A stretch of DNA of 64,000 nt, from contig MGDU01000001.1 of assembly GCA_001790815.1 (NCBI GenBank), forward strand, positions 2,982 through 66,981. Direction: 5' to 3'. Positions 7,579 to 61,848 of this stretch are shown here, in pieces. The notes below the pieces were generated by a model. That model worked only from the letters and a program-made list of their open reading frames with translations. It made no database searches and was not told the origin of the DNA. Position 1 is the first letter of the stretch; every line of letters begins with the position of its first letter. The stretch is from Candidatus Uhrbacteria bacterium RIFCSPHIGHO2_02_FULL_46_47 (lineage in GTDB: Bacteria; Patescibacteriota; Patescibacteriia; GWA2-47-26). Both the position numbers and the translations under genes were made by a program.

Positions 7579-7669
7579 AGCCACTAACAACAAGGGGGAC
7601 AACAAATCGGCGTGCCGTAGCTGACACGCCGATCTTTTAATTGTATTAAACAAAAACAAGTCCACTTTA

Positions 7670-7788
<119 letters not shown>

Positions 7789-7958
7789 GTGAACTTGTTT
7801 TATTTTTTGAGAGTAACCGCATCCAAAGAAATCCAAATTTGTGCTTCAGTGTTTTTGACCGATTAGTAACGCTCGGCTCAAATCCTTACGGATCTTTCAC
7901 CTGCGCCCTATCAACCTCATAATCTCTAAGGAGTCAAATAAGACCTAATCTTGAGGAC

Positions 7959-7997
<39 letters not shown>

Positions 7998-8134
7998 AAC
8001 GCTGCTACTGAGCAATGCCCTTGGTAGAACAACTCATACACAGGAGGTTCGTTCTTTCCGGTCCTCTCGTACTAGGAAAGAGCCCTCTCAAGTCTTTGCG
8101 CCCGCGACAGATAGGAGACCGAACTGTCTCACGC

Positions 8135-8318
8135 ATGTATATTCATTATTTCTAATGGCATGGACTATATCTTCATCCCGATTATACATCGGGAGCCAAC
8201 GTGTAGTCTCTACGGACTCTCTGCTTTCGCAGGTTGCCTCGGTATTACCCTCTTGAACAGTTCGAAATTCAAGGAGGGCTTCACCGATACAGTTGGTGCT
8301 AGAACGGCATTACTGCCG
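8135..8318 (-). mobile_element. group I intron 1 in 23S (E. coli ~2593 region), ORF-less, boundaries approximate
   Basis: Insertion between GAACGUC and GUGAGACAG exon sequence; contains S-like GAAGAUAUAGUCC and R-like GUAGAGACUAC core elements. Confidence 0.5.
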
Positions 8319-8345
8319 CCAAACGCCATGCTCCCAGATTGGGAG

Positions 8346-8379
<34 letters not shown>

Positions 8380-8404
8380 TGGCGAACAGCCAAACCCTTG
8401 GGAC

Positions 8405-9170
8405 CTCATTTCTTGTTATCTCCGCTTACGCGGAGTACCAGACTATACCATCACCATAGTTGCAATCGTCACCGATTGAACCGTAGGTGCGAACCGTATG
8501 ATAGTGGCATAATTCATAATAATATCCAAAGCCATCTATCTCACTACGATCTTGCATCGGAGATCAGTCGTTACGGGAGCGCTTGTCTTTGATCATTGTC
8601 GCATGATTGATGCGGCGATTTTTTGATCGCACATTCAATCGCGCCAATGTATCCGCCAAACGAGCCGCCACCATCAATTCCTTAGGAGAATTGATCGTGC
8701 CACTTAGCAATCGTAATGCTTTTGTGGTTTGCTGATTCTTAATCTTGAAATAAGGTTTCAATATAGTCAACAGTTCCTTAATTTCACTTTGCTTCCGTAA
8801 AAGCCAATCATACGTAGTGCGATTTTTACGCACTAGTCCGCAATGGCATTTATTTTGCAACCAATGCAGAATTTTGGGATTGGCTTGGGTTGCTTTTAAA
8901 ACAACCCGAATACGGAAACCAAATTTTTTCTCCTTGTGCCGTTCGATCGTCGCCATTATGGCGCCGTCGGCATCAAGAAAACCAGCAATATATGCTCGCT
9001 CGACTTCAGACAATCGCTTTCCCACGGGGTTAACCTTCATACATTCAAATTATACCTGGGACCTGCGATTTACACAAGTCGATATAATTCAAATTATGAA
9101 GGCCTTCACCGTTTTGAGCTCGTTTATTACTCCGACGTTTCCGTCGGAGAGAGAAGGTTATGTTTTCTCC
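8405..9170 (-). mobile_element. group I intron 2 in 23S (~2563), carries a LAGLIDADG ORF
   Basis: Exon ...GGGGCUGGAG resumes at 9175; GGUCCCAAGGG at 8400; intervening 765 nt encodes ORF 8564..9040. Confidence 0.55.
8564..9040 (-). CDS. LAGLIDADG homing endonuclease (single motif, 158 aa), intron-encoded
   Basis: YIAGFLDADGAI motif; located inside a 23S insertion. Confidence 0.8.
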   Translation of the reverse strand: MKVNPVGKRLSEVERAYIAGFLDADGAIMATIERHKEKKFGFRIRVVLKATQANPKILHWLQNKCHCGLVRKNRTTYDWLLRKQSEIKELLTILKPYFKIKNQQTTKALRLLSGTINSPKELMVAARLADTLARLNVRSKNRRINHATMIKDKRSRND

Positions 9171-9206
9171 AGCCCCAGGATGCGATGAGCCGACATCGTA
9201 CATTAA

Positions 9207-9613
9207 TCCACGATTTCGCGTGGTGCAGACTATATCTTCATCTTGCTCCGGATCGTAGTCCCGCGGACGCGGGACATAATCTCAGTTTGATTATAGCAAG
9301 AGTCGGCGTTTTACCCGGGCGCCACTTTCTGGCGCGCCAAGTCTTCCCTTTCGGGTCAGTCGTTACGGGGTCATGAGCGCTATGCGCTAAATTACTAATT
9401 TCTAATTGTTCTAATTTCTAAATTTTAGGAATTAGGTTAATTAGGTTAATTAGATATTCACTGCTTTGCAGTGCTGACTTCCCACGGTATCGCCGGGTAG
9501 CGCGGGCGCGCTACTGACGGGTCCACCGTTATAAGCCGATTTTATTGTCTCTATCTAAACTAAATGGTTTTGACGAAAAGACTGGAAACAAATCACTTTG
9601 TATGCACCCCGAT
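9207..9613 (-). mobile_element. group I intron 3 in 23S (~2500), ORF-less
   Basis: Insertion between GAGCCGACAUCG and GGUGCCAAAC exon blocks; S-like GACUAUAUCUUC at 9228; contains AT-rich hairpin aattaggttaattaggttaattag. Confidence 0.5.
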
Positions 9614-9847
9614 ATGTTAAGGTGCCAAACCTTGCCGTCGCTATGGGCGCTTGGGCAAGATCAGCCTGTTATCCCCGGAGTAGCTTTTATCCGTTGAGCT
9701 TCGCCGGTCCTATGACCGAGCGTCGGATCACTAACTTCTACTTTCGTATCTGCTCGTCTTGTATGACTCGCAGTCAAGCAGGCTTTTGCGTTTGCACGTC
9801 ATGCTCGATTTCCATCCGAGCTAAGCCTACCTTTGTAAACGCCTCCG

Positions 9848-10513
9848 TTACCTTTTAGGCAATTGTGTTAGCCAAACCTTGGGCAACTTATACCGCATTG
9901 AAGGAATCACGAATGGTTCGATGAGAGTAAGAAATCGTTCGATGGTTTCTCCTATCACATACAATTGCATCCCATCTCGATCCTTTCGTGTATTGGTTTT
10001 AATTCCAAACTTTTTAAGTAGTGCACTCTGAAGTCGTTCCATACTCTGCAGATCGAATCCTTGCGTATTCAGAAATACAGTGCGATGATGCTTCGATTTA
10101 ATTGATCCGTCATCCATATACCATACTGCGAGCACAAGTGGTGTAAGCCATCTATGGATCAATTGTGGCACTACCTTGTTTCCTTTGCGGTAGAATTGCT
10201 GAGCACAGAATCGGAATGAACCTGAGCTTAATGTATTGAAGTAATACTTTGGATATATTCCCGAGACGCTTCGAAGTCGCACAAATCGTTCGCGAACCTT
10301 TGGTAAAGTCAACACCCACTCCCGAAATTCGTTGTGGATCCAATCCACATATTCTTTCTGCTTGAGTGTGTGCTCAATCTTTAGCCGATAGGTTCGCCCA
10401 TGATCCTGCGTTTCTAAATGTCCATCTCCAAGAAGTGTTCCTACAAGAATCTCTTGCTGACGCGAAGTCAACTTGAGTTTATTCTTATATGTTGCTATTG
10501 CATTACTATGCAT
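9848..10513 (-). CDS. LAGLIDADG homing endonuclease (two motifs, 221 aa), intron-encoded
   Basis: ILVGTLLGDGHLE and LAVWYMDDGS motifs. Confidence 0.8.
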   Translation of the reverse strand: MHSNAIATYKNKLKLTSRQQEILVGTLLGDGHLETQDHGRTYRLKIEHTLKQKEYVDWIHNEFREWVLTLPKVRERFVRLRSVSGIYPKYYFNTLSSGSFRFCAQQFYRKGNKVVPQLIHRWLTPLVLAVWYMDDGSIKSKHHRTVFLNTQGFDLQSMERLQSALLKKFGIKTNTRKDRDGMQLYVIGETIERFLTLIEPFVIPSMRYKLPKVWLTQLPKR

Positions 10514-11147
10514 AGATTTGGTGTTCGAATTATTCGAACTCTCTATGTCGCCATAGAGTTCAGACTATATCATCTCCTCCGAAGGACTTCGGAGGAGTCG
10601 AGCGTGTAGTCGTTGAGGGGCCAATTTGCCCAGATTTTTGGACTTGACTTACTTTATACTTTGTGCTATATTGCTCACCAAGGAGGTTCCCATGTCGCAG
10701 AAGGCTCGCAACACGCACCTACTCTACGGTTTGCTGATCTACGGTTTTTTCGGAACGTGCTTGATGGTGATGTTCTCCGCCATCGCCCGCGGGTGCTACT
10801 CAATGTACTTTCGCTGAGCGCAACCGCGATCGCTCTGCCAACTCACCTGTGTCGAAGACGCAGGTGGGTTCTTCTTTTTTTATTTGAAATAAGTCCAAAA
10901 ATCTGAGCAAACGGCTTCCCTGCTGATTGTCCGCAGTCCGATATTTTCACCACACTTTTAAGTGCGGTAATCGGACATACTCCGGATGTTCCAGCATATA
11001 GTCCCGACGTTCGCCTTTGGCGAAGTCGGGATCCCGATCCCTTTACGGGCATCGGGACTCAATATTGCGTTCTGCATTACTGCAGAACCGCCCCTAAGGA
11101 TTCGTCCTCCGATGTCCATCGGAGGCGTAACGGAATTGAATCCTTGT
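9870..11147 (-). mobile_element. group I intron 4 in 23S (~2066), carries a double-motif LAGLIDADG ORF
   Basis: Exon GGGGCGGAUGCCUC (11150) continues at CUAAAAGGUAACGGAGG (9868); 1.28-kb insertion with ORF 9848..10513 and an S-like element at 10560. Confidence 0.55.
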
Positions 11148-11449
11148 TGAGGCATCCGCCCCAGATAAACTGCCTACCAGGCCCTGTTCCTCTGCGTCGA
11201 TTCAGGCGCAAAGGTAAGGAGTAAAATATAGAAAGGGTGGTGTTTCATTGTCGTCCCGCTTGCGCGGGACTCCCACCTACGCTAAACATTCCATGCCCTA
11301 CCCCAAGACCAAGCTACAGTAAAGCTTCACGGGGTCTTTTCGTCTAGCCGCGGGTAACTCGCATCTTCACGAGTCTTGCAATTTCGCCGAGTCCCTCGTT
11401 AAGACAGTTCTCAAGTTGTTATGCCATTCGTGCAGGTCGGAACTCCATT

Positions 11450-11733
11450 TACTTCATCATGTTACCATGATGTTTAGACTATACTTTCATCTGGCTACAA
11501 TCATTAGGAGATATAATCTCCATGGAATGCTTTTTCAGCCAGAGCCGACGTGTTGGCCATCCCGATAGATATCGGGACAACCCTCTCCTTTCGGATCAGT
11601 CGTTACGGGGTCAGTCCGCCTAGGCGGGACGACTTCCCACGGTATTGTCCTATTGTATCATAGGATATCCACCGTTATGAGTCGGCGTACTAATGCCATG
11701 TCGCCACAGCATTCGGGCGAGTGTTCCCGACCG
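11450..11733 (-). mobile_element. group I intron 5 in 23S (~1931), ORF-less
   Basis: Exon GCGAAAUCCCUUGUCGGGUGAA (11735-11768) and ..GGAGUUCCGACCUGCACGAAUGG (11447) separated by 285 nt carrying GACUAUAC S-like and gtcagtcgttacgggg elements shared with introns 2 and 3. Confidence 0.45.
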
Positions 11734-11756
11734 GAAACATTGTTCACCCGACAAGG

Positions 11757-12040
11757 GATTTCGCTTATCGTGTTACTCATCCTATTAAGGATGGGCATGG
11801 TCATTTCTGCCATGCTCTGCATGTCGCCATGCAGATCGGACTCTATCTTCTCCACGTATTTGATACGGGAGTCTGGCATATAGTCTCTACGGACTCTCTC
11901 AACACTTTCGTGTTAAGGTTGCCTCGGTATTGTCTCGATGCTTATCGAGATGTTCACCGATATAGTCAGATTTTCTTCTACATCTTCGCAGGCATTGCGA
12001 AGTTCGAAGGGGGTCTTTCACCCCACTAAGGCAGCAATTC
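11757..12040 (-). mobile_element. group I intron 6 in 23S (~1917), ORF-less
   Basis: Exon ..GUCCUAAGGU (12045) joins AGCGAAAUCCC (11757); core gtagtctctacggactctct..ggttgcctcggtatt is nearly identical to intron 1. Confidence 0.45.
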
Positions 12041-12744
12041 CACCTTAGGACGATTATAGTTATCGCCGGCGTTCATCAGCGCTTCGGTTCAAAGCTGCCG
12101 CGCGCCTTGCGGCGCACATGACTTCTCTCCTTAACGTTCTGACACTGGCCAGGCATCAGCCCCTATACATTGTCTTACGACTTCGCAGGGACCTATGTTT
12201 TTGGTAAACAGTCACTTGAGAGACGCTTGTTGCAGCCCCGCTTGCGCGGGGCAGGCCTTATCCCTAAGTTACGGCCACTTTTTTGCCGAGTTCCTAAACG
12301 AGGGTTCTCTCGTTCACCTTGGCACAATTGTGCCCGGGGACCTGTGTCGGTTTACGGTACGGTTGCCAAAAGACAGGGCTTCAAAGCTTTTCTAGGCGTA
12401 CTCTTTACTCTCATCTGATCCACCTTGCGGCTTCACATTACCCTTTGCAGGGACGTGCGTATCCAAAAACACGCGGGAACTCCGAGAACGCGCACCTTGA
12501 AATGACTCTTTCGGCAGTGCAGGAATATTAACCTGCTGTCCATCGACTACGCCTTTCGGCCTCGCCTTAGGACCGACTAACCCTGGGACGATTTGCGTTG
12601 CCCAGGAAACCTTCCCCTTACGGTGTGAAGGGTTCTCACCTTCATTTGTGCTACTTATGCCAACATTCTCTCTTCTTGCCGCTCCATGGCGGCTCACGCC
12701 TACCACTTCAACGCAGCAAGAATGCTCCCCTACCGCCGACGCTC

Positions 12745-12885
12745 CGCGTCGGAATTTCTAATTTCTAATTGACCTAATTTCTAATAAAATTTCCAATGCC
12801 CAATGTTTAATTTCCAAGTTTGGTTATTAGGTATTGGTACTTTTGGATTTTATTAGGTGAATTAGGTGAATTAGGTGAATTAGAC
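12745..12885 (-). repeat. AT-rich palindromic expansion hairpin inside 23S (replaces E. coli helix ~1165-1185)
   Basis: aatttctaatttctaatt...attaggtgaattaggtgaattaggtgaattag arms are near reverse complements; no group I core; flanked by contiguous exon sequence. Confidence 0.5.
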
Positions 12886-12976
12886 ATTTCCCGATGCGAA
12901 GCATCGACTCTTGTCTTCGGTACGCCGCTTAAGCCCCGGTACATTTTCGGCGCGGCACGGCTCGACCAGTGAGCTG

Positions 12977-13025
<49 letters not shown>

Positions 13026-15252
13026 TTGAGCCGCACCACTTCCTTTCACACTGAGCGGTCCCGATGCCCTTGCGGGATACGGGATGCCGACTTCACGTCG
13101 GCACGATTTTGGGACCTTAGACGAAGATCAGGGCTGTATCCCTTTTGAGCGATGGAGCTTAGCCCCCATGCTCTGACTCCCAAGGTACATCATACGGCAT
13201 TCGGAGTTTGATTCGATGCGACGGATTGCTCCGCCACGATCGATTCAGTGCTCTACCTCCGCAGACAATCCTTGAGGCTATACCACAGTATATTTCGGGG
13301 AGAACCAGCTATTACCCAGTTCGATTGGCATTTCACCTCTAACCACAGATCATCCCAAAGTGTTGCACAGCTTACGGGTTCGGGCCTCCATCTGTCTTTC
13401 GACAAACTTCACCCTGTCCATGGTTAGCTCACTGGGTTTCGGGTCTTGTGCACGCTGCTTGTCCGCAGATTTATCGACGCAGATAACGCTGATACAAATC
13501 AGCGAAATCAGCGCCAAAAAATCAGCGGGGTCGCCCTTTCAGACTTGGTTTCCCTGCGCCTTCGTCCCGTAGGACTTAGACTTTGCAACGCGCAACAAAC
13601 TCGTTGGCTCATTCTTCAATAGGAACACCATAACCGCTACGTAGCAGCGGAAATCCGAATTTCGAAATCCGAATGTCGAAATTTAATTCGTCATTCGTCA
13701 TTCTGGTTTCGTCATTCCCGATGCTACGCATCGGCGTTGATTCCTTGTAAGCGTATGGTTTCAGGTTTTATTTCATCGGCCTCACCGGCCTACTTTTCAC
13801 CTTTCCCTCATGGTACTTGTTCACTATCGGTGATGGAGGAGTATTTAGCCTTGGCGCATAGTCGCGCCGGTTTCCCACGGGATTTCACGTGTCCCGCGGT
13901 ACTCAAGTATAGTCATAGTAAGGCGATAACCCCTTTCGCGTACGGGACTGTCACCCTCTTTGGTTCCGCATTCCAGCGGATTCTACTAGGGAAGCTATGC
14001 TTTGTACACCCTACCTCGCCTTTCAAGGCAGCGATCATGACAAACTTACAACTTCTTCTACTTATGTAGCCCTTGAGCCTTCCGCAACGCACGTAGCGTC
14101 ACACCTTTCGATGCAACACTCGCCTCGCTACTTAAAAGTAGAAGATCTAGGCTTTTCCCCGTTCGCTCGCCACTACTAGGGGAATATCCACAAAAAATCG
14201 GGCACGAAACTCACGAAATAATTTCGTGTCTTTTCGTGTTTCAATTTTCGTGGTCTTTATTTTCTTTTCCTCTGGTTACTGAGATGTTTCACTTCACCAG
14301 GTTTACTTCGCCCACATTGCTGTGGGAGATTATGCAGTTCAACACTGCATAGGGTTGCCCCATTCGGACATCGCCGGATCAAAGCTTGCTTGCCAGCTCC
14401 CCGACGCTTATCGCAGGCTGCTACGTCCTTCATCGCCTCTCCATCCCAAGGCATCCACCATACGCCCTTGACACTGAAGCACAAATTTAGATTCTTTTGA
14501 TAATAGTTGACTAGTCGAAACTAGCAACTCGTTTTGATGCGATTACTCTCTACTAATTAAATTGTCAAAGTTCTCCAGTTCGCACCACAGATCAGATGGT
14601 CAACCTCATCTCTGAAGCGAAAATAAAAGATCCCGCGTACGCGGGACCCGTAAATTACACCGAAAAAAGACGGCTACCCGCTAGGACAAGTTAATTTCAG
14701 AACTTTTCGCATATTTAAGCTTAAAATTCAGCCTCCTTACCGTCTGTATCTTGCACCTGCTAGTATGCCATATCCCTTAAAATGTGTCAACCCCAGCCCT
14801 TCCACAGGGTATTCACAATGGGCTACAACCGCGGCGATTCCGCGCGCGACGAAGCCAGCAACGGCCACGACCCGCGCTTCGCCTAGCCGCACCTTCCCAC
14901 CTTCCACCACGCACCCGCTCTTCACACCCACCGCAAGCAACGCCATGTCTCCCCGACCTCTGGCGTTCTTCTTTTTATGCAAAAATGTAGCCGCAGGTCT
15001 TTAGCCTGCGTTCAATTGCGCCACCTAAAGAGCGGCGACTACAATTATGATGACTCCACATAAGAAAAACACCTTGGTAAGTCAACCACATCTATCCACA
15101 CCCTACATTGACAAACTATATGAATGTGGTATGCTTACAGTGGTTATCAATTCGAGGAATCACACTCCTACGAGGAGTCACTAAGCAGCCCACAAGGGCT
15201 GTTTTGCGTTAAAGCGCTATACAATATGAATCAGGAATTTTTGATTTATTAT

Positions 15253-16578
15253 TTATCGCGAGAGTGGTCTGAATTTTTGTCCAAGTTCCCAATTAGGATC
15301 AACATCAAGTTTTTGCCAGGGAGTGAATTGTTTGGCGCGGGCCATGAAATACCCAGCCGCGGCAATCATGGCGGCGTTATCTGTTGTGTAGGCAAGAGAT
15401 GGTAGTATGTAGGACGTAGTAGGTAGTTCGGATTTAATCGTATTGGCCAATTGCTCGCGCAGGCGTTTGTTTGCCGCCACCCCACCACCAAGAAGAACTG
15501 TTTTCACCTTGTACTTTTTCGCCGCGCGCACAGTTTTGGCTACCAGCACATCCACCACGGCTTGTTCAAATGAAGCACAAATACGTACTAAAGCATCCTG
15601 CGGGAGATTTGATGCGGCCGCAGAATTTTTACCCACTTTATTTTTCGCAAGAAAATCTCTGACATAATACAAAACCGCGGTTTTGAGTCCGGAAAATGAA
15701 AAATCAAAGTCCGGCGAATCAATCATGGGGCGAGGGAAGTGAATGCCCCCTCCCCTAACCCCTCCCACAAGGGGAGGGGGATTTTCTTTTATTCCCTCTC
15801 CCTTGATGGGAGAGGGTTGGGGTGAGGGTGGTTGCCTTGGGTGGAATTTCTCGGCCAATCTTGAAATGGCTGGTCCTCCCGGATAGCCCAACCCCAACAT
15901 CTTGGCCACTTTATCAAACGCTTCTCCTGCCGCATCATCGCGCGTTGCGCCAATAATCTTGAAATCCAAGTGCTTTTTCATAAGCACCAGTTCAGTGTGG
16001 CCACCACTCACAATCAAACACAGGAGTGGAAATTGTACACCCTCACCCTGCCCTCTCCCAGAGGGAGAGGAAAATTGTGGCGGTTTTCCCTCTCCCCATG
16101 TGGGAGAGGGTGGCCGTAGGCCAGGTGAGGGAAGCCAATTCGCATACACATGCCCTGCAAGATGATTTACTGCCACCACCGGCTTGCGCCAAAGATACGA
16201 AAACGTACGCGCCACTTCCACACCGACAAGGAGTGAAGTCGCCAGTCCCGGCCCAGCCGTTACCGCGATAGCATCAATCTCCCCCTCCCCTAGCCCCTCC
16301 CACCGAGGGAGGGGAACTTCTTTTTTCTTCCTCCCCCTTGATGGGGGAGGATTGAGGAGGGGATGAACCCCTTTCAAAGCTTGCTCTACCACTGGAATAA
16401 TCTTCTCCACATGCGCTCTTGCGGCCACCTCTGGCACCACCCCGCCGGTCTTGGCATGGATCTTAATCTGCGATGCCACAATGTTACTGTGAACTGTGAA
16501 CTGTTGTCTGTGAACTTCAACTACGGCCGCCGCAGTTTCATCACACGATGTTTCAATTCCTAAAATTCGCATAATCAA
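15253..16578 (-). CDS. tsaD: tRNA N6-adenosine threonylcarbamoyltransferase TsaD (Kae1/Gcp family), lengthened by three in-frame repeat insertions
   Basis: MIMRILGIETSCDETAAAVVE N-terminus; 441 aa vs ~340 typical; extra Pro/Gly/Glu-rich segments encoded by the palindromic elements at 15727-15840, 16040-16130, 16270-16365. Confidence 0.85.
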   Translation of the reverse strand: MIMRILGIETSCDETAAAVVEVHRQQFTVHSNIVASQIKIHAKTGGVVPEVAARAHVEKIIPVVEQALKGVHPLLNPPPSRGRKKKEVPLPRWEGLGEGEIDAIAVTAGPGLATSLLVGVEVARTFSYLWRKPVVAVNHLAGHVYANWLPSPGLRPPSPTWGEGKPPQFSSPSGRGQGEGVQFPLLCLIVSGGHTELVLMKKHLDFKIIGATRDDAAGEAFDKVAKMLGLGYPGGPAISRLAEKFHPRQPPSPQPSPIKGEGIKENPPPLVGGVRGGGIHFPRPMIDSPDFDFSFSGLKTAVLYYVRDFLAKNKVGKNSAAASNLPQDALVRICASFEQAVVDVLVAKTVRAAKKYKVKTVLLGGGVAANKRLREQLANTIKSELPTTSYILPSLAYTTDNAAMIAAAGYFMARAKQFTPWQKLDVDPNWELGQKFRPLSR

Positions 16579-22060: not shown

Positions 22061-23575
22061 ATGTCGCTTACTCGCGCGGTGGCCAGAAATACTTTTGTTC
22101 AACTTATTGGCCGCGTTATATCCATTGCGCTCGCGCTGATTGTAGTGGCAATAATGACCCGCGCCTTAGGGCCGGATGGCTTTGGCGGCTACTCCATTAT
22201 CATTGCTTTTTTGCAATTCTTCGGCATCACGGTTGATTTTGGACTGACCCTCACGGCTAATCGGATGTTGAGTGAAATACATAACTCCCCCCAACCCCCT
22301 CTTACCTTAAGAGGGGGAGACAATTCAAACCCTCCCCTTAAGATAAGGGGAGGTGCAGGAGGGGTTATGAACGATGCATCCCGCCTGATGTCCAACTTAA
22401 TGACCCTCCGTTTCGTGTCAGCAATCGTCTTTCTCGGTCTTGCGCCACTTGTCGCGCTCTTCTTTCCTTATCCACCTGAAGTAAAACAGGGAATTCTCCT
22501 GACAAGTTTTTCCTTTCTAGCCGTGATCATGGGGCAAACGCTCACGCCGATTTTTCAAAAAGAATTGCGCATGGGTTATGTAGTTGTGGCAGAGTTGATT
22601 GGCCGCGTGGTGCTTCTGGCCGGCGTAACATTGGCTGCCTATTTTAGTGCGGGACTGCTTTGGTTTATGGCCGCGGTTGTGGCCGGCAGTATTGCACAAT
22701 ATATTGCCACTCGTAAGGCGGCTTCCAAATTTATCAAACTGCGCTTTGCCTTTGACCGCGAAATATGGAAAAAAATTATTCGGACTTCCTGGCCTATTGG
22801 CGTGTCAATAATTTTCAATTTAATTTATCTTAAAGCTGACACTATAATCCTCTCGGTTTTGCGGCCGCAAGCTGAGGTGGGATTTTACGGCGCGGCCTAT
22901 CGGGTCATTGATCAATTTACCGCTGTAGCGACCATGTTTATCGGACTTGTTCTCCCACCACTTACTGCCGCATGGGTGGCTGGCAATCGCGAAAGATTTA
23001 CAAGAATATACCAAGGTGCCTTTGATGCCTACACAATTATCGCTTTTCCCTTGATGGTTGGCGCGCTAATGCTTGGCACAAAACTTATGGCTTTTGTTGC
23101 CGGTGCTAATTTTGCCGCTTCCGGTACAGTGCTGGGAATTTTAATGCTGGGCATGGTGGCGATATTTTTTTCCACGCTGTTTGGACATGTAATTGTAGTA
23201 TTGAACAAGCAAAAACCGATGATTTTGGGATATGCCGCAACTGCCGTGCTTGGCCTCACGGCCTACGCGCTGGTTATTCCGCATTATGGAATGTTTGGCG
23301 CGGCTTGGACAACAGTGGGAACAGAGTTTTTGATTATGCTCATCACCTTTATGGTGGTCTCCCGCGTGACTAAATTAAAACCTAATAACTTTGTGCTCTG
23401 GCGAAGTATTTTGGCTTCCGCCATCATGGGCTATACCCTTTACATTTTCTCCACCTATCATTTCCTTGTACTTTTATTTGGCGGCACATTAATCTATGGC
23501 ATAGCGCTGTTTGCGTTGGGCGGTATTAAAAAAGAAATGATTCGAGAAATCCTTTCAATACGTTCCCTCCCTTAA
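22061..23575 (+). CDS. MOP/Wzx-type polysaccharide biosynthesis flippase, carrying an in-frame repeat insertion
   Basis: ~12-14 predicted TM helices; N-terminus RNTFVQLIGRVISIALALIVVAIMTRALGPDGFGGYS typical of the family; insertion at 22283-22365. Confidence 0.6.
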   Translation: MSLTRAVARNTFVQLIGRVISIALALIVVAIMTRALGPDGFGGYSIIIAFLQFFGITVDFGLTLTANRMLSEIHNSPQPPLTLRGGDNSNPPLKIRGGAGGVMNDASRLMSNLMTLRFVSAIVFLGLAPLVALFFPYPPEVKQGILLTSFSFLAVIMGQTLTPIFQKELRMGYVVVAELIGRVVLLAGVTLAAYFSAGLLWFMAAVVAGSIAQYIATRKAASKFIKLRFAFDREIWKKIIRTSWPIGVSIIFNLIYLKADTIILSVLRPQAEVGFYGAAYRVIDQFTAVATMFIGLVLPPLTAAWVAGNRERFTRIYQGAFDAYTIIAFPLMVGALMLGTKLMAFVAGANFAASGTVLGILMLGMVAIFFSTLFGHVIVVLNKQKPMILGYAATAVLGLTAYALVIPHYGMFGAAWTTVGTEFLIMLITFMVVSRVTKLKPNNFVLWRSILASAIMGYTLYIFSTYHFLVLLFGGTLIYGIALFALGGIKKEMIREILSIRSLP

Positions 23576-23598
23576 GATAAGGGAGGGCAGGGTGGGTT

Positions 23599-25086
23599 AT
23601 GAATTACTACTACATACTACTTACTACGTTCTACATACTATTTACAGTTCTTGCGTGGAAACGCCTAAACTGGGCTGTACTTTTTGTAATTGCCGCACTT
23701 CCGTCTTATCTAATTCGCTTCCGCGTTGGCCCGATTCCGATGACTGTACTGGAGGGAATGATTCTCATAATTTTTGCTGTCTGGTTCGTCAAACGAAATT
23801 CGCGAATTCATAACCCCTCCTCACCTCCCCTTAACTTAAGGGGAGGCAGGGTAGGGTTATCATTTTACATTCCGCTGTTACTTTTTCTCCTTGCCTCCAC
23901 TCTTTCTATGTTTGTTTCTCCGGACTTGCGTGCCGCTTCCGGGATTTGGAAAGCATATTTTGTAGAACCAATATTATTTTTCTTTGTGCTCCGCGATCTT
24001 ATTCGAAACCACGTTACACGTTACACGTTACACGTTACGCAAATCATAGCCGCCCTTTCCCTTACTGCTCTAGCACTCTCCCTCTACGCCATTTACCAAC
24101 GCTTCACGGGCTTTGGAATTCCACCACCCTGGGATACAGAGTTGCGCGTGACCAGCATTTTCCCCTACCCCAACGCGCTTGCGCTTTTCCTTGCTCCGCT
24201 TGTGCCATTGTTTATTGCACAACTTCTCACTAAATTTCGTCATTCTGAGCGTAGCGAAGAATCTCGCGCGAATGCGCGGCAGTTATTTGTTATTGGTTAT
24301 TGGTTGTTAGTCACAATTGCGACAATTGTTGCGATTGTCTTTGCAAAATCCACCGGCGCGATGGTGGGGATTGCGGCCGGACTTTTATTAATATATGCAC
24401 TTTGGTTCGTGCGGTCAAAAACCTACGATCGTAGTAAATTGACCGCAACGAAATTCTACATACTACATACTACATACTACATACTTGCGATCGCCGGACT
24501 GACTATACTTTTACTGCGGGTTATGCCAAGTATAAAGGACGAGCTATTATTGCGCGACTGGTCCGGCCATGTGCGGCGCACGCAGTGGACGGAAACTTGG
24601 CAAATGCTTAAAGACACCTCCACGCCACTCGGTGCAGGTCGCCCAATCCTTGGCGCTGGCCTAGCGGGCTATAAAGAAACGCTTGCGCCATACCACAAAG
24701 CAACCTACCTTGAGATTTTTGAATATCCACACAATATCGTGCTCAATTTCTGGTCAGAAACCGGACTACTGGGCCTCTTCGCCTTTGTGTGGCTTATCAT
24801 AATTTTCTTTCGCACAACATTCCCCTCCCTTAGGTCCGACGCTTCAGTCGGACTCCGACCCAGCAGGGCGTCGGAGATAAGGGAGGGTAGGGTGGGTTAT
24901 GAACCGTATACCATCGCGGTCATGACCAGTATGGTCGTCGTATTGATCCACGGCCTCGTTGACGTTCCATACTTCAAAAACGATCTTGCTATTTTGTTCT
25001 GGATCGTGTATGCTTTGGGAATGGAACTTTCAAAATCAACGCTTTCGCAACCCCTCTTGACAACAGATAAGGACGTGATATACTAG
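23599..25086 (+). CDS. O-antigen ligase (Wzy_C/WaaL-like) family membrane protein with in-frame repeat insertions
   Basis: Polytopic protein; YPHNIVLNFWSETGLLGL matches the H..N..L...E.G..G ligase motif; start ATG lies inside a repeat element. Confidence 0.55.
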   Translation: MNYYYILLTTFYILFTVLAWKRLNWAVLFVIAALPSYLIRFRVGPIPMTVLEGMILIIFAVWFVKRNSRIHNPSSPPLNLRGGRVGLSFYIPLLLFLLASTLSMFVSPDLRAASGIWKAYFVEPILFFFVLRDLIRNHVTRYTLHVTQIIAALSLTALALSLYAIYQRFTGFGIPPPWDTELRVTSIFPYPNALALFLAPLVPLFIAQLLTKFRHSERSEESRANARQLFVIGYWLLVTIATIVAIVFAKSTGAMVGIAAGLLLIYALWFVRSKTYDRSKLTATKFYILHTTYYILAIAGLTILLLRVMPSIKDELLLRDWSGHVRRTQWTETWQMLKDTSTPLGAGRPILGAGLAGYKETLAPYHKATYLEIFEYPHNIVLNFWSETGLLGLFAFVWLIIIFFRTTFPSLRSDASVGLRPSRASEIREGRVGYEPYTIAVMTSMVVVLIHGLVDVPYFKNDLAILFWIVYALGMELSKSTLSQPLLTTDKDVIY

Positions 25087-27916: not shown

Positions 27917-30439
27917 ATGTCCAAAGAACGCTTTATGATAATTGACGGCAATGCCCTGGTGCACCGGGCATTTCATGCGCTTCCGCCGCTTTCCACCAAA
28001 GACGGTAAAATAGTCAATGCCGTATATGGATTTACAACAGTTTTGATGAAGGCATTGAAGGAGCTCAAGCCGGAATACGCGGCGGTAACTTTTGATTTAG
28101 CCGCGCCGACTTTTCGGCACAAGTTATACAAAGAATATAAAGCGCAACGTATAAAACAGCCGCAAGAATTATATGATCAACTGCCACTGGTTAAAGAAGT
28201 GGTGCGCGCGTTTGATATTCCGGTAGTGGAGAAAGAGGGATTTGAAGCTGATGATGTAATCGCGACTTTGTCGCGAAAATCCCAAATCCCAAGCACCAAA
28301 TCACAAATCGAAACGATTATTGTAACTGGAGACATGGACACATTGCAACTTGTGGATGAGAATACCAAAATTTACAGTTTTCGCAAAGGATTTTCCGATA
28401 CATTTATCTATGATGCACAAGCAGTGCAAGAGCGCTATGGACTCACGCCGGAGCAAATGGTGGATTACAAGGCCTTGCGCGGCGACCCATCTGACAATAT
28501 TCCGGGTGTGCGCGGTATTGGCGAAAAAACTGCTGTGGAATTATTGAAGGAGTTTAGCTCAGTAGAAAAACTATACAAAGAAATTGATAAAGAAAGTGTA
28601 CGCGCTAAAACAATACGGCCCAAAGTGTTGGAGCTGTTAAAACAATATCGAGAAGACGCAATGCTTGGCAAGAAGCTGGTGGAATTGGTAAAAGATGTGC
28701 CGCTTTCAGTATCGCTCAAAGATTGTAAACTAAGCGAACCAGATAAGAATAAGTTGAAAGAGATTTTTGAAAAATTTGAATTCAGGAATTTGTTGGCGCG
28801 ATTGGAAAAAAAAGATGTAGCCGCAGGTCTTCAGCCTGCGCAAAAAGCACAAGGATCGTTGTTGGGTAACCCCTCACCTGACCTTCAGTCATCCTCTCCA
28901 TCAGGGAGAGGGAAGGGTGAGGGTGGGATGTCACCCCTTTATGTTCGTGAAGGCAACACCATCATCGGCCACGATCTAAAATCAATACTACATACTACCC
29001 CCTACGCACTACCTCCTCCATTTTTTGACACCATGATTGCCTCTTATCTTTTGCATCCGGGAAGAGGCATGCATGACTTTGAAAGTGTTTTGCGTGAGCA
29101 CAATATGGAGCTGAATGGTCAAGCAGTGGTATTGCTTGCACAAAAACTTCAAGGGGAGCTGGCAAAAGAGAATCTCACGCCAGTATTTGAAAGTATTGAA
29201 ATGCCGCTTATTCCAGTGCTTGCGAAAATGGAGGGGATTGGCATTAAAGTGGATACGCCCTATTTAAAAAAATTATCTGTGCAATTTGCCAAAGAGTTAG
29301 ACGGATTTCAGAAAAAAATCCACAAACTCGCGGGCGAGGAATTTAATATTGCCTCACCAATGCAGTTACGCGAGGTGCTGTTTGAAAAAATGAAACTAGC
29401 TCCGGAAACTGGTCGCATTAAAAAAACCGCCAAAGGCAAAGTTGCCTCCACTGCCGCGGGCGAGCTTGAAAAATTGCGCGGACTACACCCCATTGTGGAT
29501 TTAATTTTTGATTATCGCGAGATTGCCAAATTGCAATCCACCTATACTGACGCTCTTATAGAATTAGTTGATAAAAAAGACGGCCGGGTGCACACTACTT
29601 TTAATCAAGCTGTAACTGCTACGGGTCGACTCTCCTCATCAAGTCCTAATTTGCAAAATATTCCGATTCGCACTGAAACCGGACGCCTGATTCGCAAAGC
29701 CTTTGTGGCTGAAAAAGGATATGTGCTTTTGTCTGCGGATTATTCGCAAATTGAATTGCGCGTAGCGGCTTCGCTTTCCGGCGATCCTGAACTTATTAAG
29801 GCATTTAAAAGTGGACATGATTTTCATGCCCATACCGCCTCATTGATGTTTGGTGTAGCTGAGGATAAAGTAACCAAGGAGATGCGGCGCAATGCCAAAG
29901 CCATTAATTTTGGAATTATTTATGGCATGGGTGCCACTGCGCTTGCGCAATCAACCGGTATGCCGCGCTATGAAGCCGAACAATTTATCGCGCGTTATTT
30001 TGAAGTGTTTAATGGCTTGCGCGATTATTTGGAAGGGTTAAAAGAGAAAGCCCGCACCAAAGGATATGTAGAAACGCTTTTTGGCCGCCGGCGATATCTT
30101 CCGGAAATAAATTCCGGTGTGCAACAAGTCCGCGCCGCGGCCGAGCGCATGGCCATTAATATGCCGGTTCAAGGCACCGCAGCAGATTTGATGAAAATGG
30201 CCATGATTAAAATTCATCAAGAACTACGTGCTACTTCCTACATACTACATACTAATGCACGCATGCTTCTCCAAGTGCATGATGAATTGGTCTTTGAAAT
30301 TAAAGAAGATCAAGTGACAGAAATTGCACCAAAAATTAAATCCATCATGGAAACCGTGCACACTTTCAAAGTCCCAATCCTTGTAGAACTCAAAACAGGC
30401 AAAAATTGGGGAGAGCTTTCTCCATTTTCCTCCCCTTAG
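27917..30439 (+). CDS. polA: DNA polymerase I
   Basis: 5'-3' exonuclease N-terminus (IIDGNALVHRAFHAL); polymerase motifs (RRNAKAINFGIIYG, QVHDELVFE); contains in-frame repeat insertions and a repeat-encoded C-terminus. Confidence 0.9.
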   Translation: MSKERFMIIDGNALVHRAFHALPPLSTKDGKIVNAVYGFTTVLMKALKELKPEYAAVTFDLAAPTFRHKLYKEYKAQRIKQPQELYDQLPLVKEVVRAFDIPVVEKEGFEADDVIATLSRKSQIPSTKSQIETIIVTGDMDTLQLVDENTKIYSFRKGFSDTFIYDAQAVQERYGLTPEQMVDYKALRGDPSDNIPGVRGIGEKTAVELLKEFSSVEKLYKEIDKESVRAKTIRPKVLELLKQYREDAMLGKKLVELVKDVPLSVSLKDCKLSEPDKNKLKEIFEKFEFRNLLARLEKKDVAAGLQPAQKAQGSLLGNPSPDLQSSSPSGRGKGEGGMSPLYVREGNTIIGHDLKSILHTTPYALPPPFFDTMIASYLLHPGRGMHDFESVLREHNMELNGQAVVLLAQKLQGELAKENLTPVFESIEMPLIPVLAKMEGIGIKVDTPYLKKLSVQFAKELDGFQKKIHKLAGEEFNIASPMQLREVLFEKMKLAPETGRIKKTAKGKVASTAAGELEKLRGLHPIVDLIFDYREIAKLQSTYTDALIELVDKKDGRVHTTFNQAVTATGRLSSSSPNLQNIPIRTETGRLIRKAFVAEKGYVLLSADYSQIELRVAASLSGDPELIKAFKSGHDFHAHTASLMFGVAEDKVTKEMRRNAKAINFGIIYGMGATALAQSTGMPRYEAEQFIARYFEVFNGLRDYLEGLKEKARTKGYVETLFGRRRYLPEINSGVQQVRAAAERMAINMPVQGTAADLMKMAMIKIHQELRATSYILHTNARMLLQVHDELVFEIKEDQVTEIAPKIKSIMETVHTFKVPILVELKTGKNWGELSPFSSP

Positions 30440-30598
30440 GTCCGACGTTCCAGTCGGACTCCGTACCGCAGCGTCGGAGATAAGGAAGAGCTAGAGGGGT
30501 TTATGAAACATGCTATAATACCAATACTATGAACGCATTTGAATGGGCCAAGGCAAAAGAAGCAGTAATACCGCCAATGAAGTGCATTAAAATAATCT

Positions 30599-32023: not shown

Positions 32024-32180
32024 CAAGAAATCCGCCTGCCATGGCGGATGTTTAGTAATAAAATGATAACGGCTCAATATTTTGCGATCGCAAATACTTG
32101 AGTCGTTTGTTTTTAATGGGTGGAGAAAAGAAAAAGCCGGGATTGAAACGTGCCCGGCGCACGGAAGGAACGTGGAAGGA
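32024..32180 (+). repeat. 155-bp direct repeat, copy 2
   Basis: See copy 1; the copies diverge after ..gcacggaagga. Confidence 0.8.
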
Positions 32181-39539: not shown

Positions 39540-39680
39540 AGCTGCGGGGTATCCTAAAATCTCCCCTCCCTTGACGGGAGGGGACTGAAACATCCTTAAT
39601 GGATGTTTCAGGGGAGGGTGAAAACAACATTCTATCACCCCCACCCTAACCCTCCCCCATCAAGGGGGAGGGAACTATAA
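39540..39680. repeat. intergenic cluster of three GC-rich palindromic mini-elements
   Basis: cccctcccttgacgggaggggac..., cagggga gggtg..., ccctcccccatcaagggggagggaac; same family as the in-gene insertions. Confidence 0.8.
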
Positions 39681-55765: not shown

Positions 55766-56800
55766 ATGACACTTGATACATTAGTGCGACAATTTTTGGA
55801 ATATATTGAGGTGGAACGAGGACGGAGCAAAAGGACGATTGAAAATTACCAGTTTTATCTAGGGCGGTTTTTGATGTGGTCTGCGGATCATGGGGTAAAG
55901 AGTCCGGCTGGCATAACGCAAGATACAGTGCGCGAGTATCGGCTGTGGCTGAATCGCTACAGGGCTAAGCCCTTAAAGCATACAGGGCTTAGCCCTGACG
56001 AGGGACTTAAAAAAAATACTCAAAACTATCATCTTATTGCATTGCGCGCGTTTTTAAAATATCTTTCCAAGCGCGATATCAAAACCCTTGTGCCGGAAAA
56101 AATTGAATTGGGCAAAATGCCTACGCGGCAAGTGGATTTTCTTGAGGCAGAAGATTTGGAACGGATGCTTAAGGCGCCGCTTATCCCCTCACCTGACCTG
56201 CGGTCTTCCTCTCCCGAGGGGGTCGAAGACGGGCCGAGCGGGCGTAGGCCCCGGGGAGGGCAGGGAGAGGGCAGTATTGTGCAACTTCGCGACAAGGCAA
56301 TTTTGGAAATGTTGTTTTCAACAGGCCTGCGCGTGTCCGAGCTTGCTGGACTCAAACGTACGGATGTGAATCCAAAAAAAGAAGAGTTTACCGTGCGCGG
56401 TAAAGGAAGCAAATTACGCGTGGTCTTTATGTCGCCGGGAGCGCGGGAGTGGCTTAAAAAATATTTGGACGCGCGCGGTGATATGGCGCCATATTTGTTT
56501 GTCCGCCATGATAAAGCCCGTCTCAAAAGCGGAGAAGGCGGCGCGCTTACGCCGCGTTCAATACAAAGAATTGTGGAGAAGTATGCCAAAGCCGCGGGAA
56601 TTACCAAACGCATTTCCCCGCACACCCTCCGACACACATTCGCTACTGACCTTTTGCGCAATGGCGCCGATATTCGCAGTGTGCAAGCTTTGCTTGGCCA
56701 TTCCTCCATTACCACCACCCAAATCTACACTCATGTTACCGACACCCAGCTTCGCGAGGTGCACAAGGCATTTCATGCACGGCAAAGAGCAGAGGATTGA
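55766..56800 (+). CDS. tyrosine recombinase XerC/XerD family, carrying an in-frame repeat insertion
   Basis: HTLRHTFATDLLRNGADIRSVQALLGHSSITTTQIYTHV catalytic region; insertion at 56188-56285. Confidence 0.8.
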   Translation: MTLDTLVRQFLEYIEVERGRSKRTIENYQFYLGRFLMWSADHGVKSPAGITQDTVREYRLWLNRYRAKPLKHTGLSPDEGLKKNTQNYHLIALRAFLKYLSKRDIKTLVPEKIELGKMPTRQVDFLEAEDLERMLKAPLIPSPDLRSSSPEGVEDGPSGRRPRGGQGEGSIVQLRDKAILEMLFSTGLRVSELAGLKRTDVNPKKEEFTVRGKGSKLRVVFMSPGAREWLKKYLDARGDMAPYLFVRHDKARLKSGEGGALTPRSIQRIVEKYAKAAGITKRISPHTLRHTFATDLLRNGADIRSVQALLGHSSITTTQIYTHVTDTQLREVHKAFHARQRAED

Positions 56801-59074: not shown

Positions 59075-60769
59075 ATGCGACAACATAAACTAATTTTAAT
59101 CGGCATTATTCTTCTTGGCCTTTTTTTGCGTCTCTTTATTTTATCTCAAAGAGGTTCGCTTTGGTTTGATGAGGCATTTTCCGTGCATTTTGCAGAAATG
59201 CCGCTTAAACAGATGCTTCATTATTTGCAGTTTGAAAATAATCCGCCGTTATATTTTATTCTGCTTCATTTTTGGATGAAACTTTTCGGAAGCGGAGAGC
59301 TTGCGGTGCGCGCGCTTTCCATGATTTTTGGCATGGCAAGCATTCCGATGGTATATGTGCTGGGCGTGCGGCTTTTTACTCCTCTCGCCCAAACCCCCTC
59401 ACCCGATCTCGCTTCCGCTCAATCACCCTCTCCCCAAGGGAGAGGGCAGGGTGAGGGACGAGTGGCCGGACTTTTTGCGGCATTTCTTCTTGCAATTTCC
59501 ACATTCCAGGTTTATTACGCAACCGAAACGCGGATGTATACGCTGTATTTGTTTTTAGCATTGCTTGCGGTTTGGTTGTTCGTTAGATTACAGATTAAAG
59601 ATTTAAGATTAAAGACAGCATATCAGGCGAATCCGTCACTGAGTGATAAGGGTGCCCATCACTCAGTGACGAAATTTGTTCCTCTTTTCTTAGTTCTACT
59701 CCTACTTATCTGGACGCATATCACTGCTTGGATGATTATCGCCGCATTATTAATTTACCTTTTGTGGCAATCGCAATTCAACATTAAACAATTCATAATT
59801 CATAATTCTAGATTCATAATTCTTGGAGCACTTTTAGTGCTCCAATTCCTGCCCTGGGCTGTTAATTTTATTAAACTCAAAATTATTACGCCAATATCAC
59901 AAGGATATTTTTTTTATCTTCCGCCTGATAAGAATTTTTTTCTTTCAATCCTTGAAATGTTTTTGGTGTTTGGGCAGGATAATGCTTTTATTGTAACACT
60001 TTTAAGTGTGGTGATTGTGGGGCTACTTTGGTTTGCATTGCGTAGTGCCTTCACCCCAACTCCTCTCCCTGAGGGAGAGGGTAGGGTGAGGGGGGTACGA
60101 TTGCTATTTTCATGGCTACTTGTTCCACTTCTTATTGGTTTTGCGTTTTCAAATGCCATCCCGCGTTACTTTATTGCAGTAGCGCCGGCATTGTATTTGT
60201 TGCTGGGAATCGGGTTTGCCAATTTTGTTGAGCGAATAAAAGGTAAATTTACTTTAAGACAATTCTACTTACTACATACTACCTTCTACCTACTCATGCT
60301 CGCGTTGATTTTTCCGGATTTACCATCACTTGTAAAAATTGGGCATCGTGAGTGGGATAAATTGACAGGGTGGGTAGAGCAAATGCAAAATGTAAAATGT
60401 AAAATTAAAAATGAGTGTCTTGTGTTAATAAATCCGCATAGTGAGATTTTGCCGTTTGAACGATATTACAAGGGTTCATTGCCAGTGGTCGGCTTTTATC
60501 CGCGCGATGATCAAGATGATCGCGATACACGTATTGTAAAGACAAATTGGATCTCGCTTAATACAAAAGAAAATGTCCCGCGGCTGCGGGACATAACGCG
60601 CGGATATAATCACGTATTTTTGGTAACCGGCGGGATTGATCCGATTGGCCGCAATCTAGTGCCGGCCTGGTTTTGGGATAATGGGTGGAAGAGGGTTGAG
60701 TCTCAGGAGTTTGGAAGAATATCAGTGATGGTGTTGGAACGGTTGCCCCTCACCCAACCCTCTCCCTAA
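59075..60769 (+). CDS. ArnT/PMT-family (GT39/GT83-like) polyprenol-phosphate-sugar-dependent glycosyltransferase with in-frame repeat insertions
   Basis: Polytopic; N-terminal DEAFSVHFAEM loop typical of GT-C mannosyltransferases; follows a Dpm1-like donor synthase. Confidence 0.6.
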   Translation: MRQHKLILIGIILLGLFLRLFILSQRGSLWFDEAFSVHFAEMPLKQMLHYLQFENNPPLYFILLHFWMKLFGSGELAVRALSMIFGMASIPMVYVLGVRLFTPLAQTPSPDLASAQSPSPQGRGQGEGRVAGLFAAFLLAISTFQVYYATETRMYTLYLFLALLAVWLFVRLQIKDLRLKTAYQANPSLSDKGAHHSVTKFVPLFLVLLLLIWTHITAWMIIAALLIYLLWQSQFNIKQFIIHNSRFIILGALLVLQFLPWAVNFIKLKIITPISQGYFFYLPPDKNFFLSILEMFLVFGQDNAFIVTLLSVVIVGLLWFALRSAFTPTPLPEGEGRVRGVRLLFSWLLVPLLIGFAFSNAIPRYFIAVAPALYLLLGIGFANFVERIKGKFTLRQFYLLHTTFYLLMLALIFPDLPSLVKIGHREWDKLTGWVEQMQNVKCKIKNECLVLINPHSEILPFERYYKGSLPVVGFYPRDDQDDRDTRIVKTNWISLNTKENVPRLRDITRGYNHVFLVTGGIDPIGRNLVPAWFWDNGWKRVESQEFGRISVMVLERLPLTQPSP

Positions 60770-60802
60770 GGGAGAGGGGGATTGTAGGTTTGGTGAGGGA
60801 GA

Positions 60803-61815: not shown

Positions 61816-61848
61816 TTTACATTTTAAATTTTTAATTTTACATTACCC

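Follow-up and report, generated by a model that had tools for sequence, protein, structure and literature searches.

In a stretch of 64,000 nucleotides from Candidatus Uhrbacteria bacterium RIFCSPHIGHO2_02_FULL_46_47 (contig MGDU01000001.1; the whole stretch is referred to as the window), GC-rich palindromic elements recur inside tsaD and several unrelated genes, and the TsaD protein is predicted to have 441 amino acids, compared with ~330-345 for a typical TsaD. The locus raises the question of what these elements are, how they came to lie within open reading frames (ORFs), and what becomes of them at the protein level. We consider it likely that they are copies of the pan-bacterial BoxC / PIT / TMECO repeat, that they were gained at many places in this Uhrbacteria lineage, including ORFs, where they are translated, and that they spread by a trans-acting or replication/repair-linked process.

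Abundance and reading-frame residence of the elements

Fifteen element loci containing 16 three-block units were found in the window. A scan for hairpins with a pyrimidine arm returned 18, of which 16 were at places already listed, while shuffled sequences gave 0 each (n=5). The stricter three-block scan searched for a pyrimidine block, a complementary purine block and a mirror purine block in a relaxed pattern (block length of 7-10, loop 2 of 1-5 nt, one mismatch allowed) and returned the 16 units, compared with 0 across 20 second-order Markov simulations. All 12 canonical G-quadruplex (G4) motifs of the window fall within elements; the simulations contained 0-2. An earlier note on this DNA had counted at least 14 GC-rich palindromic copies, and all 14 places do hold the described sequences. 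The arm variants it mentioned are also present, except that they form two subfamilies, designated type A and type B, rather than variants of a single form.

Ten of the 15 loci are internal to ORFs and in frame (tsaD three times, the Wzy-like and GT39 genes twice each, and the flippase, polA and xerD-like genes once each), three overlap a gene end, to which they contribute a stop or a start codon, and the remaining two share a single intergenic spacer; the listed genes make up 82% of the window. None of the ten internal copies disrupts the host frame, and the frame used is open in each. The earlier statement that most copies sit in ORFs with the frame intact is correct for these ten and incorrect for the copies starting at 23563, 30427 and 60746, which are on gene ends. 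The idea that the elements are inherently free of stop codons in all frames was rejected, as whole elements had 42 of 90 frames open versus 45.7 for random window segments. Several whole elements have 0-2 open frames, some having one open of six, and the core unit in other bacteria has a mean of 4.5 of six frames open. An orientation bias was also considered and not accepted: for single units within ORFs, the sense strand carries the G-rich blocks in 5 of 5 cases, but all are on the + strand and the sample is small, and among in-frame cases from other phyla the orientation of the G-rich block splits 4:4 (n=8). What stands out in the window is the density of the elements and the ORF-internal position of 10 of 15 loci, compared with 0 of 23 in E. 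coli K-12.

Assignment to the BoxC/PIT/TMECO family

The BoxC and PIT repeats were reportedly described by Bachellier and coworkers in the 1990s and by Hoyne and coworkers in 2000. The TMECO motif, the later name of the same repeat, was defined as CCCTCNCCC N3-6 GGGNGAGGG N3 GGGNGAGGG and counted at 3610 copies across 262 proteobacterial genomes (Holder et al. 2015, PMC4666352). In E. coli K-12 all 23 copies are intergenic, five form inverted pairs, and no link to a transposase was found; the triplex forms in vitro and went undetected in vivo, the motif displayed neither promoter nor terminator activity in E. coli, and its loci are linked to deletions, replication problems and local instability (PMC4666352). 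BoxC is also among the E. coli stem-loop families (Cozzuto et al. 2008, PMC2267715), and the same purine halves, HPG1 and HPG2, constitute a G-quadruplex-hairpin-duplex switch (Kaplan et al. 2016, PMC5100583).

Positions 15794-15828 of the window are an exact fit to the published TMECO pattern, and 16 units fit its relaxed version. Of 5426 complete E. coli genomes, 4991 contain matches of 80-95% identity to a 51-nt piece of the same tsaD insert (15786-15836). The median number of such places in a genome is 15, and none of the 8 matches listed coincides with an annotated feature. The G-rich halves of the elements equal the HPG1/HPG2 sequences. Because of the exact pattern fit and the direct match to E. 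coli DNA, we assign the elements by sequence to the known pan-bacterial BoxC / PIT / TMECO family, which is not an invention of the candidate phyla radiation (CPR). The earlier note was unaware of an equivalent described for CPR genomes; a described family does exist, in E. coli and more than 260 genomes (PMC4666352, PMC5100583, PMC2267715); for CPR/Patescibacteria themselves, a literature search on palindromic elements or MITEs (short for miniature inverted-repeat transposable elements) found no relevant paper.

The window elements share with BoxC/TMECO the three-block sequence, with 80-95% DNA similarity, the dispersed multicopy distribution, the G4-capable purine half, the occurrence of both single units and inverted pairs, and the lack of a linked transposase. 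They differ in that E. coli copies were reported always to be intergenic, whereas here 10 of 15 loci are ORF-internal and 3 more are on gene ends; intergenic location is a property of the E. coli copies and not part of the motif definition. Furthermore, the second loop is often 2 nt here rather than 3, type B is distinguished by blocks of 7 nt, a TTAAGATAA loop and a terminal TTATGA, and the present host is a CPR bacterium of ~47% GC. Coding residence, the density in this window and the narrow type B subfamily appear to be new.

Outside the window, a 25-base version of the motif was found in at least 120 stretches when one genome per GTDB species was searched, compared with about one at most by chance. 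The matches were in Pseudomonadota, Planctomycetota, Chloroflexota, Acidobacteriota, Cyanobacteria, Verrucomicrobiota, Nitrospirota, Omnitrophota, Actinomycetota and others. The motif also occurs in more than 120 IMG/VR contigs, which could reflect either carriage by phages or host DNA within proviral calls. The type B subfamily is rare: 241 million metagenome records yielded 19 contigs with it, the majority having a moderate or low GC content. In Pseudomonas crudilactis (L010 232-756) and P. chlororaphis (L033), the motif was seen in arrays of ~151 bp period with conserved flanks (...caggtcgacgtacc...cggtcggccc + unit), which suggests a larger repeat carrying the unit.

Anatomy and predicted folding

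Each unit consists of a pyrimidine block, a loop of 3-9 nt, a complementary purine block, a loop of 1-3 nt and a second purine block that is a mirror image of the first. Type A units have blocks of 8-10 nt (CCCTCTCCC / GGGAGAGGG / GGGTGAGGG and near variants), and type B units have the form CCCTCCC-TTAAGATAA-GGGAGGG-CA-GGGTGGG followed by TTATGA. Three arrangements are seen: single units, symmetric palindromes in which both sides have an outer block, and inverted doublets of about 80-90 nt (81-89), in which two units surround an A/T-rich spacer of 12-17 nt. All three tsaD inserts and the flippase insert are doublets, and the type B copies at 24823 and 30427 (n=2) have an extra inner hairpin nested in the loop.

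RNA folds of the elements ranged from -20 to -62 kcal/mol, most of them much more stable than those of shuffled sequences. When seven doublets were aligned, a three-way junction resulted in which 12 of 25 consensus pairs retain pairing through double changes. The mirror third block would permit G.G-C and A/T.A-T triads, and 16 units passed with at most one mismatch, a rule that the scan itself imposed. As a single strand, a unit is predicted to be capable of folding into any of three forms, namely a hairpin, a purine-motif intrastrand triplex and a G-quadruplex.

Element loci in the window

The host gene tsaD and the loci are as follows (aa, amino acids of the host protein; z, z score of the predicted RNA fold; where no strand is given, none was assigned).

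15253..16578, - strand: tsaD host gene, 441 aa, Pfam TsaD 7e-80
15744..15832: type A inverted doublet, TsaD aa 249-279, QPPSPQPSPIKGEGIKENPPPLVGGVRGGGI; fold -57.6 kcal/mol, z -4.7
16040..16128: type A inverted doublet, TsaD aa 151-180, SPGLRPPSPTWGEGKPPQFSSPSGRGQGEG; fold -62.1 kcal/mol, z -6.8
16282..16362: inverted doublet, TsaD aa 73-99, PLLNPPPSRGRKKKEVPLPRWEGLGEG, with blocks CCCCTCCC/GGGAGGGG and CCTCCCCC/GGGGGAGG; fold -56.4 kcal/mol, z -3.8
22283..22369: type B inverted doublet, flippase (Polysacc_synt) aa 75-103, NSPQPPLTLRGGDNSNPPLKIRGGAGGVM; fold -47.3 kcal/mol, z -6.2
23563..23598, + strand: type B single unit forming the entire flippase-Wzy junction
23812..23860: type B symmetric palindrome (outer C, C, loop, G and outer G blocks), Wzy-like aa 72-88, NPSSPPLNLRGGRVGLS; fold -32 kcal/mol, z -6.3
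24823..24899, + strand: type B unit with a nested second hairpin (GGTCCGACG...CGTCGGA), Wzy aa 409-434
28870..28925, + strand: type A single unit with an upstream CCCCTCACC block, polA aa 318-337, NPSPDLQSSSPSGRGKGEGG
30427..30503, + strand: degenerate long-loop type B copy, polA 3' end, the remainder intergenic
39561..39673: intergenic cluster, hairpin 39561-39585 plus three-block unit 39638-39673 (- strand)
56188..56270, + strand: degenerate type A copy with a long GC-rich loop, xerD-like aa 157-185
59394..59457, + strand: type A single unit with an upstream CCCCCTCACCC block, GT39 (ArnT-like) aa 107-128, TPSPDLASAQSPSPQGRGQGEG; fold -37.7 kcal/mol, z -5.2
60052..60095: type A symmetric palindrome, GT39 aa 326-341, FTPTPLPEGEGRVRGV
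60746..60799, - strand: type A unit, GT39 3' end

The three inserts of TsaD

The TsaD protein of the window was 100% identical to a protein of Candidatus Uhrbacteria bacterium RIFCSPLOWO2_01_FULL_47_24, a CPR/Patescibacteria metagenome-assembled genome (MAG). Alignment with the T. maritima and E. coli TsaD structures (PDB 6n9a and 4ydu) revealed three additional segments at aa ~72-99, 158-183 and 249-279, in agreement with the earlier proposal that this tsaD is longer because of three element copies. Among 24 CPR homologs, TsaD length ranged from 328 to 443 aa and several proteins had none of the three segments; many CPR TsaD proteins of 328-344 aa are without any of the inserts. The AlphaFold model had a mean predicted local distance difference test score (pLDDT) of 84.9 with a core above 90, and in this model the inserts map to low-confidence coil, at 37-71, between well-predicted core elements. 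An example of a predicted peptide spanning a junction between TsaD and an insert is GEGIKENPPPLVGGVR.

The 15744..15832 doublet (insert 3) comprises a unit at 15748-15780 on the - strand, a spacer and a unit at 15793-15828 on the + strand; its peptide had a pLDDT of 43-60, and it is common only to the ortholog L002, being absent from L001. The 16040..16128 doublet has a small additional hairpin, GGCC-GTA-GGCC, in loop 2 of its second unit, and its peptide had a pLDDT of 37-54; at this site L001 has a related but different doublet, and L002 and L004 have other repeats. The 16282..16362 doublet (insert 1) was found in L001 only, at 91.5% identity compared with 69-75% for the flanks, and is absent from L002 and L004.

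Unrelated repeat-like inserts were observed in the same three loops of other CPR TsaD sequences (P0004, P0007, P0011, P0026, P0046, P0103 and L004 10001-11302), examples being HSGLEPESRKQELLDSRWSLPRTTMRGGND, NPKSEIRNPKQISNHKFQIQ and the palindrome GCAAAATCATATGCGG...CGCACATGATTTTGC. Since these inserts occupy the same loops, the three loops are considered to be general insertion hot spots.

Copies in the other host genes and in intergenic DNA

The flippase insert at 22283..22369 corresponds to a clean gap of 27 aa in the L004 ortholog (67% identity). At the flippase-Wzy junction, the flippase stop codon TAA lies in the hairpin loop of the 23563..23598 unit, the Wzy ATG follows at 23599, and the GGGAGGG of the unit is a possible Shine-Dalgarno sequence; the same element is present at the orthologous junction of L004. 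The idea that the GGGTGGG-TTATGA end serves generally as a portable Shine-Dalgarno sequence plus start codon was mostly rejected: of ~20 type B copies, the terminal ATG opens a long ORF only at this orthologous junction (495 and 425 aa) and perhaps in one further contig (126 aa).

Within the Wzy-like gene, the ortholog has unrelated sequence at the site of 23812..23860. For 24823..24899, one of six frames is open, and it is the frame used. The inner hairpin of this copy is a later addition, because the L004/L005 ortholog has a plain unit (PSLKIREGRVGYE) at the same site. A different insert at 24235-24288, which the ortholog lacks, encodes RHSERSEESRANAR and derives from a repeat of the CATTCTGAGCGTAGCGAAGAATCTC type, so that coding sequence in the window has been entered by more than a single repeat family.

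The polA copy at 28870..28925 is located in the variable linker after the 5' nuclease domain of Pol I, where alignment to Taq polymerase is poor, and no clean empty site was found in L002. The copy at 30427..30503, with 0 of 6 frames open, provides the last three polA codons (SSP) and the TAG stop (30437-30439). The xerD-like copy at 56188..56270 is in the linker preceding the catalytic domain (PDB alignment); the polA and GT39 copies are closely similar to its 5' part (peptide PSPDL.S), and its predicted fold was no better than shuffles (z -0.5). In GT39, 6 of 7 orthologs are without the 59394..59457 copy, and orthologs either lack the 60052..60095 copy or have a replacement. The 60746..60799 copy provides the last ~7 GT39 codons, encoding the C-terminal extension PLTQPSP, with the TAA stop (60767-60769) in the hairpin loop; GT39 orthologs terminate at ...LERL without this extension. 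The intergenic cluster is flanked by hairpins of the form CCCYGYAGC-AA-GCTRCRGGG at 39530-39549 and 39686-39705, which may be a third small hairpin family.

Insertion status and translation

In the ortholog comparisons, the element segments were absent or otherwise occupied in TsaD, flippase, Wzy and GT39 relatives. The segments are lineage-specific insertions in loops or linkers, and not ancestral conserved regions, as the earlier note had also proposed and as both the ortholog and the PDB alignments show. Assembly chimeras, which the same note had named as a possible refutation, are excluded because identical inserts are present in several MAGs and independent assemblies.

The elements are probably translated within their host proteins as disordered Pro/Ser/Gly/Glu/Arg-rich segments, because frame and openness are preserved in all ten internal copies, which would be pointless if the segments were removed. 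If so, the survivors would be a filtered subset of more numerous gains. The earlier description of added Pro/Ser/Gly/Glu/Arg-rich loops agrees with the variable, low-confidence loop and linker sites at which these peptides would be made. We also considered that the mature protein lacks the segments, owing to their removal by an intron-like or intein-like process or to ribosome bypass, and is of normal length. Very stable structures do occur here inside essential genes, and group I introns are present in the 23S rRNA of the same genome. Nevertheless, removal would make the observed frame keeping and avoidance of stops needless; no ribozyme, intron or other RNA family was detected in the elements at the gathering score, with only weak hairpin-like matches below it; and segments of 15-31 aa are far too short for inteins, whose motifs are absent. 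Removal is therefore regarded as very improbable.

Possible host benefit, mode of spread and mobility

Orthologous copies are conserved as much as their flanks or more (91.5% versus 69-75%; 78.7% versus 61-74%), which would be expected if the elements were modules under selection for the benefit of the host rather than selfish, acting either as hairpin, G4 or triplex switches at the level of DNA or mRNA (in translation pausing, mRNA stability or recombination hot spots) or as flexible linkers. Consistent with this, hairpins are retained through compensatory changes, the stop/Shine-Dalgarno-like/ATG junction is conserved between the window and L004, and every G4 motif of the window is within an element. 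However, the copies are patchy among orthologs, the same loops of relatives hold unrelated repeats, and the host genes are unrelated in function. The E. coli motif was without promoter or terminator activity and its triplex was not seen in vivo (PMC4666352), only one orthologous junction among ~20 type B copies has a gene starting at the terminal ATG, and palindrome-templated correction could keep the pairing without selection. Host benefit is thus considered unlikely.

Gains of the element have taken place at many positions in this Uhrbacteria lineage, ORFs among them. In the scheme that we favor, survival would have been limited to insertions that had a length divisible by three, entered an open frame and fell at a tolerant site. 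The copies would be transcribed and translated along with the host protein, and a few may have been co-opted as gene boundaries, with a stop codon in the loop and GGGAGG plus ATG at the end. Because the element encodes nothing, its spread would require a trans-acting or replication/repair-linked process.

Several observations weigh against this scheme. No transposase or RAYT-like gene was found among ~46 ORFs scanned in the window, the only enzyme candidates being the XerD-like recombinase and two LAGLIDADG endonucleases in the 23S introns. A consistent target-site duplication was not found, and no pattern recurred among the copies; the flippase, the only clean filled/empty pair, has a possible AAC repeat, and the flanking CATAAC/GTTATG belongs to the palindrome. 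Among strains of >=90% identity there were no presence/absence differences: the members of the 90%-identity TsaD and Pol I clusters all have the same inserts, and shorter members are truncated gene calls. The copies have diverged by 10-25% from one another and, since strain-level differences are also lacking, no recent movement was seen. In addition, translation was deduced rather than observed, and the low pLDDT of the TsaD inserts (37-71) may partly stem from a shallow alignment. Finally, the sharing of insert 1 with L001 only and of insert 3 with L002 only would need loss, parallel gain or recombination; segment identities were compared for a mosaic origin of tsaD, and no clear pattern emerged. 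The view of the elements as selfish and mobile did not gain support, in that transposase, clear target-site duplication and recent presence/absence polymorphism were all not found, and selfish mobility remains something that we infer.

The lack of a transposase and of target duplication would also fit an origin of the segments in place, through replication slippage, hairpin-primed synthesis or break repair copying another locus (gene conversion or filler DNA). In its favor, the same loop has been entered repeatedly by different repeats, an inner hairpin is nested in an older unit, and the motif is tied to local instability, deletions and replication problems (PMC4666352). Against it, near-identical multiblock sequences are found in genes unrelated to one another and recur in E. 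coli, across many phyla and among viral contigs. Because near-identical copies need a pre-existing template in any case, this alternative differs from the favored scheme only in the copying mechanism, and we judge it improbable.

Comparison with other small repeats

REPINs are extragenic and, according to what Bertels and Rainey reportedly described in 2011, are inverted doublets of repetitive extragenic palindromes moved by RAYT transposases. The tsaD and flippase inserts resemble the REPIN replicating unit in being inverted doublets of a short hairpin unit around a spacer; they differ in that the window has no RAYT gene or Y1 transposase and the copies have no GTAG tag or other conserved 5' tetranucleotide of that type. 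Mycobacterial interspersed repetitive units are located between genes whose stop and start codons overlap, in which respect the flippase-Wzy junction copy is similar. MITEs have terminal inverted repeats matching an insertion sequence, together with target duplications; no such parent element or transposase was found among the ~46 ORFs of the window, and of a duplication there was only the possible AAC repeat at the flippase site. In-frame fusions by such small repeats are documented for the intragenic MITEs ERIC, Correia, QMITE1 and those of Anabaena (PMC10969869).

The closest parallel in behavior is with the Rickettsia palindromic elements (RPEs; Ogata et al. 2000, as summarized in PMC10969869), to which the earlier note had likened the present elements. 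Both are palindromic noncoding repeats found in frame inside unrelated housekeeping genes and also between genes, both add peptide segments at fold-compatible sites, and in both cases the host genome is small. The comparison stands for behavior, that is, residence in frame in unrelated protein genes at structurally tolerant sites, with orthologs lacking the insert. It does not extend to membership: the best match is BoxC, and the present elements are apparently unrelated to RPEs in sequence, are GC-rich, and are 36-89 nt long, compared with about 100-150 nt for RPEs. Moreover, the present family is common to many phyla rather than lineage-restricted, and its peptides are of low complexity (P/S/G/E/R) in contrast to the conserved family peptide of RPEs.

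In-frame copies in other phyla

In-frame copies of the motif with Pfam domains on both sides were found in transketolase (Nitrospirota), a MeaB-MCM fusion (Acidobacteriota), a YgiQ radical SAM protein (Anaerolineales), GlnE and LigA (Planctomycetota) and a Fer4/CCG protein (Nitrospirota). The Planctomycetota LigA has an insert of 27 aa between residues 159 and 162, as aligned to E. coli LigA. Since in-frame copies are present in genes of Planctomycetota, Nitrospirota, Acidobacteriota and Chloroflexota, coding residence is not special to CPR. It may be suggested that BoxC/TMECO-type repeats are a general, unrecognized source of in-frame protein insertions, entering loops and linkers of housekeeping enzymes in many phyla (TsaD, Pol I and XerD here; LigA, transketolase and MeaB-MCM in other bacteria), attaining very high density in small CPR genomes, that have spread across phyla without a dedicated transposase, possibly on phages, with the 80-90 nt inverted doublet as the copied unit; this wider proposal is tentative and may well not hold.

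Other features of the window

In the region 7668-14467 (- strand), the 23S rRNA gene extends over 6.6 kb and is split by insertions that include group I introns at 8142-8356 and 11817-12051 and LAGLIDADG endonuclease ORFs at 8564-9040 and 9848-10513; the 5S gene is at 7668-7785, and there is no adjacent 16S gene. A different palindrome family, GGGAAGCYGAGCTTCYGT-N4-ACGGAAGCTCRGCTTCC, has two copies (1619-1660 and 63225-63266), both in ORFs, namely 441-1850 (-) and the pilin-like 62648-63337 (-). A direct repeat of ~100 nt (30905-31000 and 32030-32125, copies 1.1 kb apart) combines a terminator-like hairpin (AAATCCGCC...GGCGGATTTTTT) with a 40-nt palindrome that comes after it and is centered on GCGATCGC. 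Three successive ORFs at 60803-63337 (- strand) have weak matches to type IV secretion system pilins (PF18895).

Implications

These findings join two literatures, that on BoxC, triplex and G4 repeats, regarded as intergenic curiosities without a known function, and that on Rickettsia-type colonization of coding sequence by palindromes, and they supply natural cases of very stable hairpin and G4 structures within essential mRNAs. They also carry a warning for annotation, in that such segments are repeat-derived and not conserved protein features. The question becomes a sharper one, namely how a motif of 35-90 nt without an enzyme came to be common to E. coli, a CPR bacterium and viral contigs. 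For the proteins themselves, the repeat may account for the low-complexity PSP...GEG...GVRG stretches that are common among predicted proteins, as well as for some of the excess length of CPR proteins.

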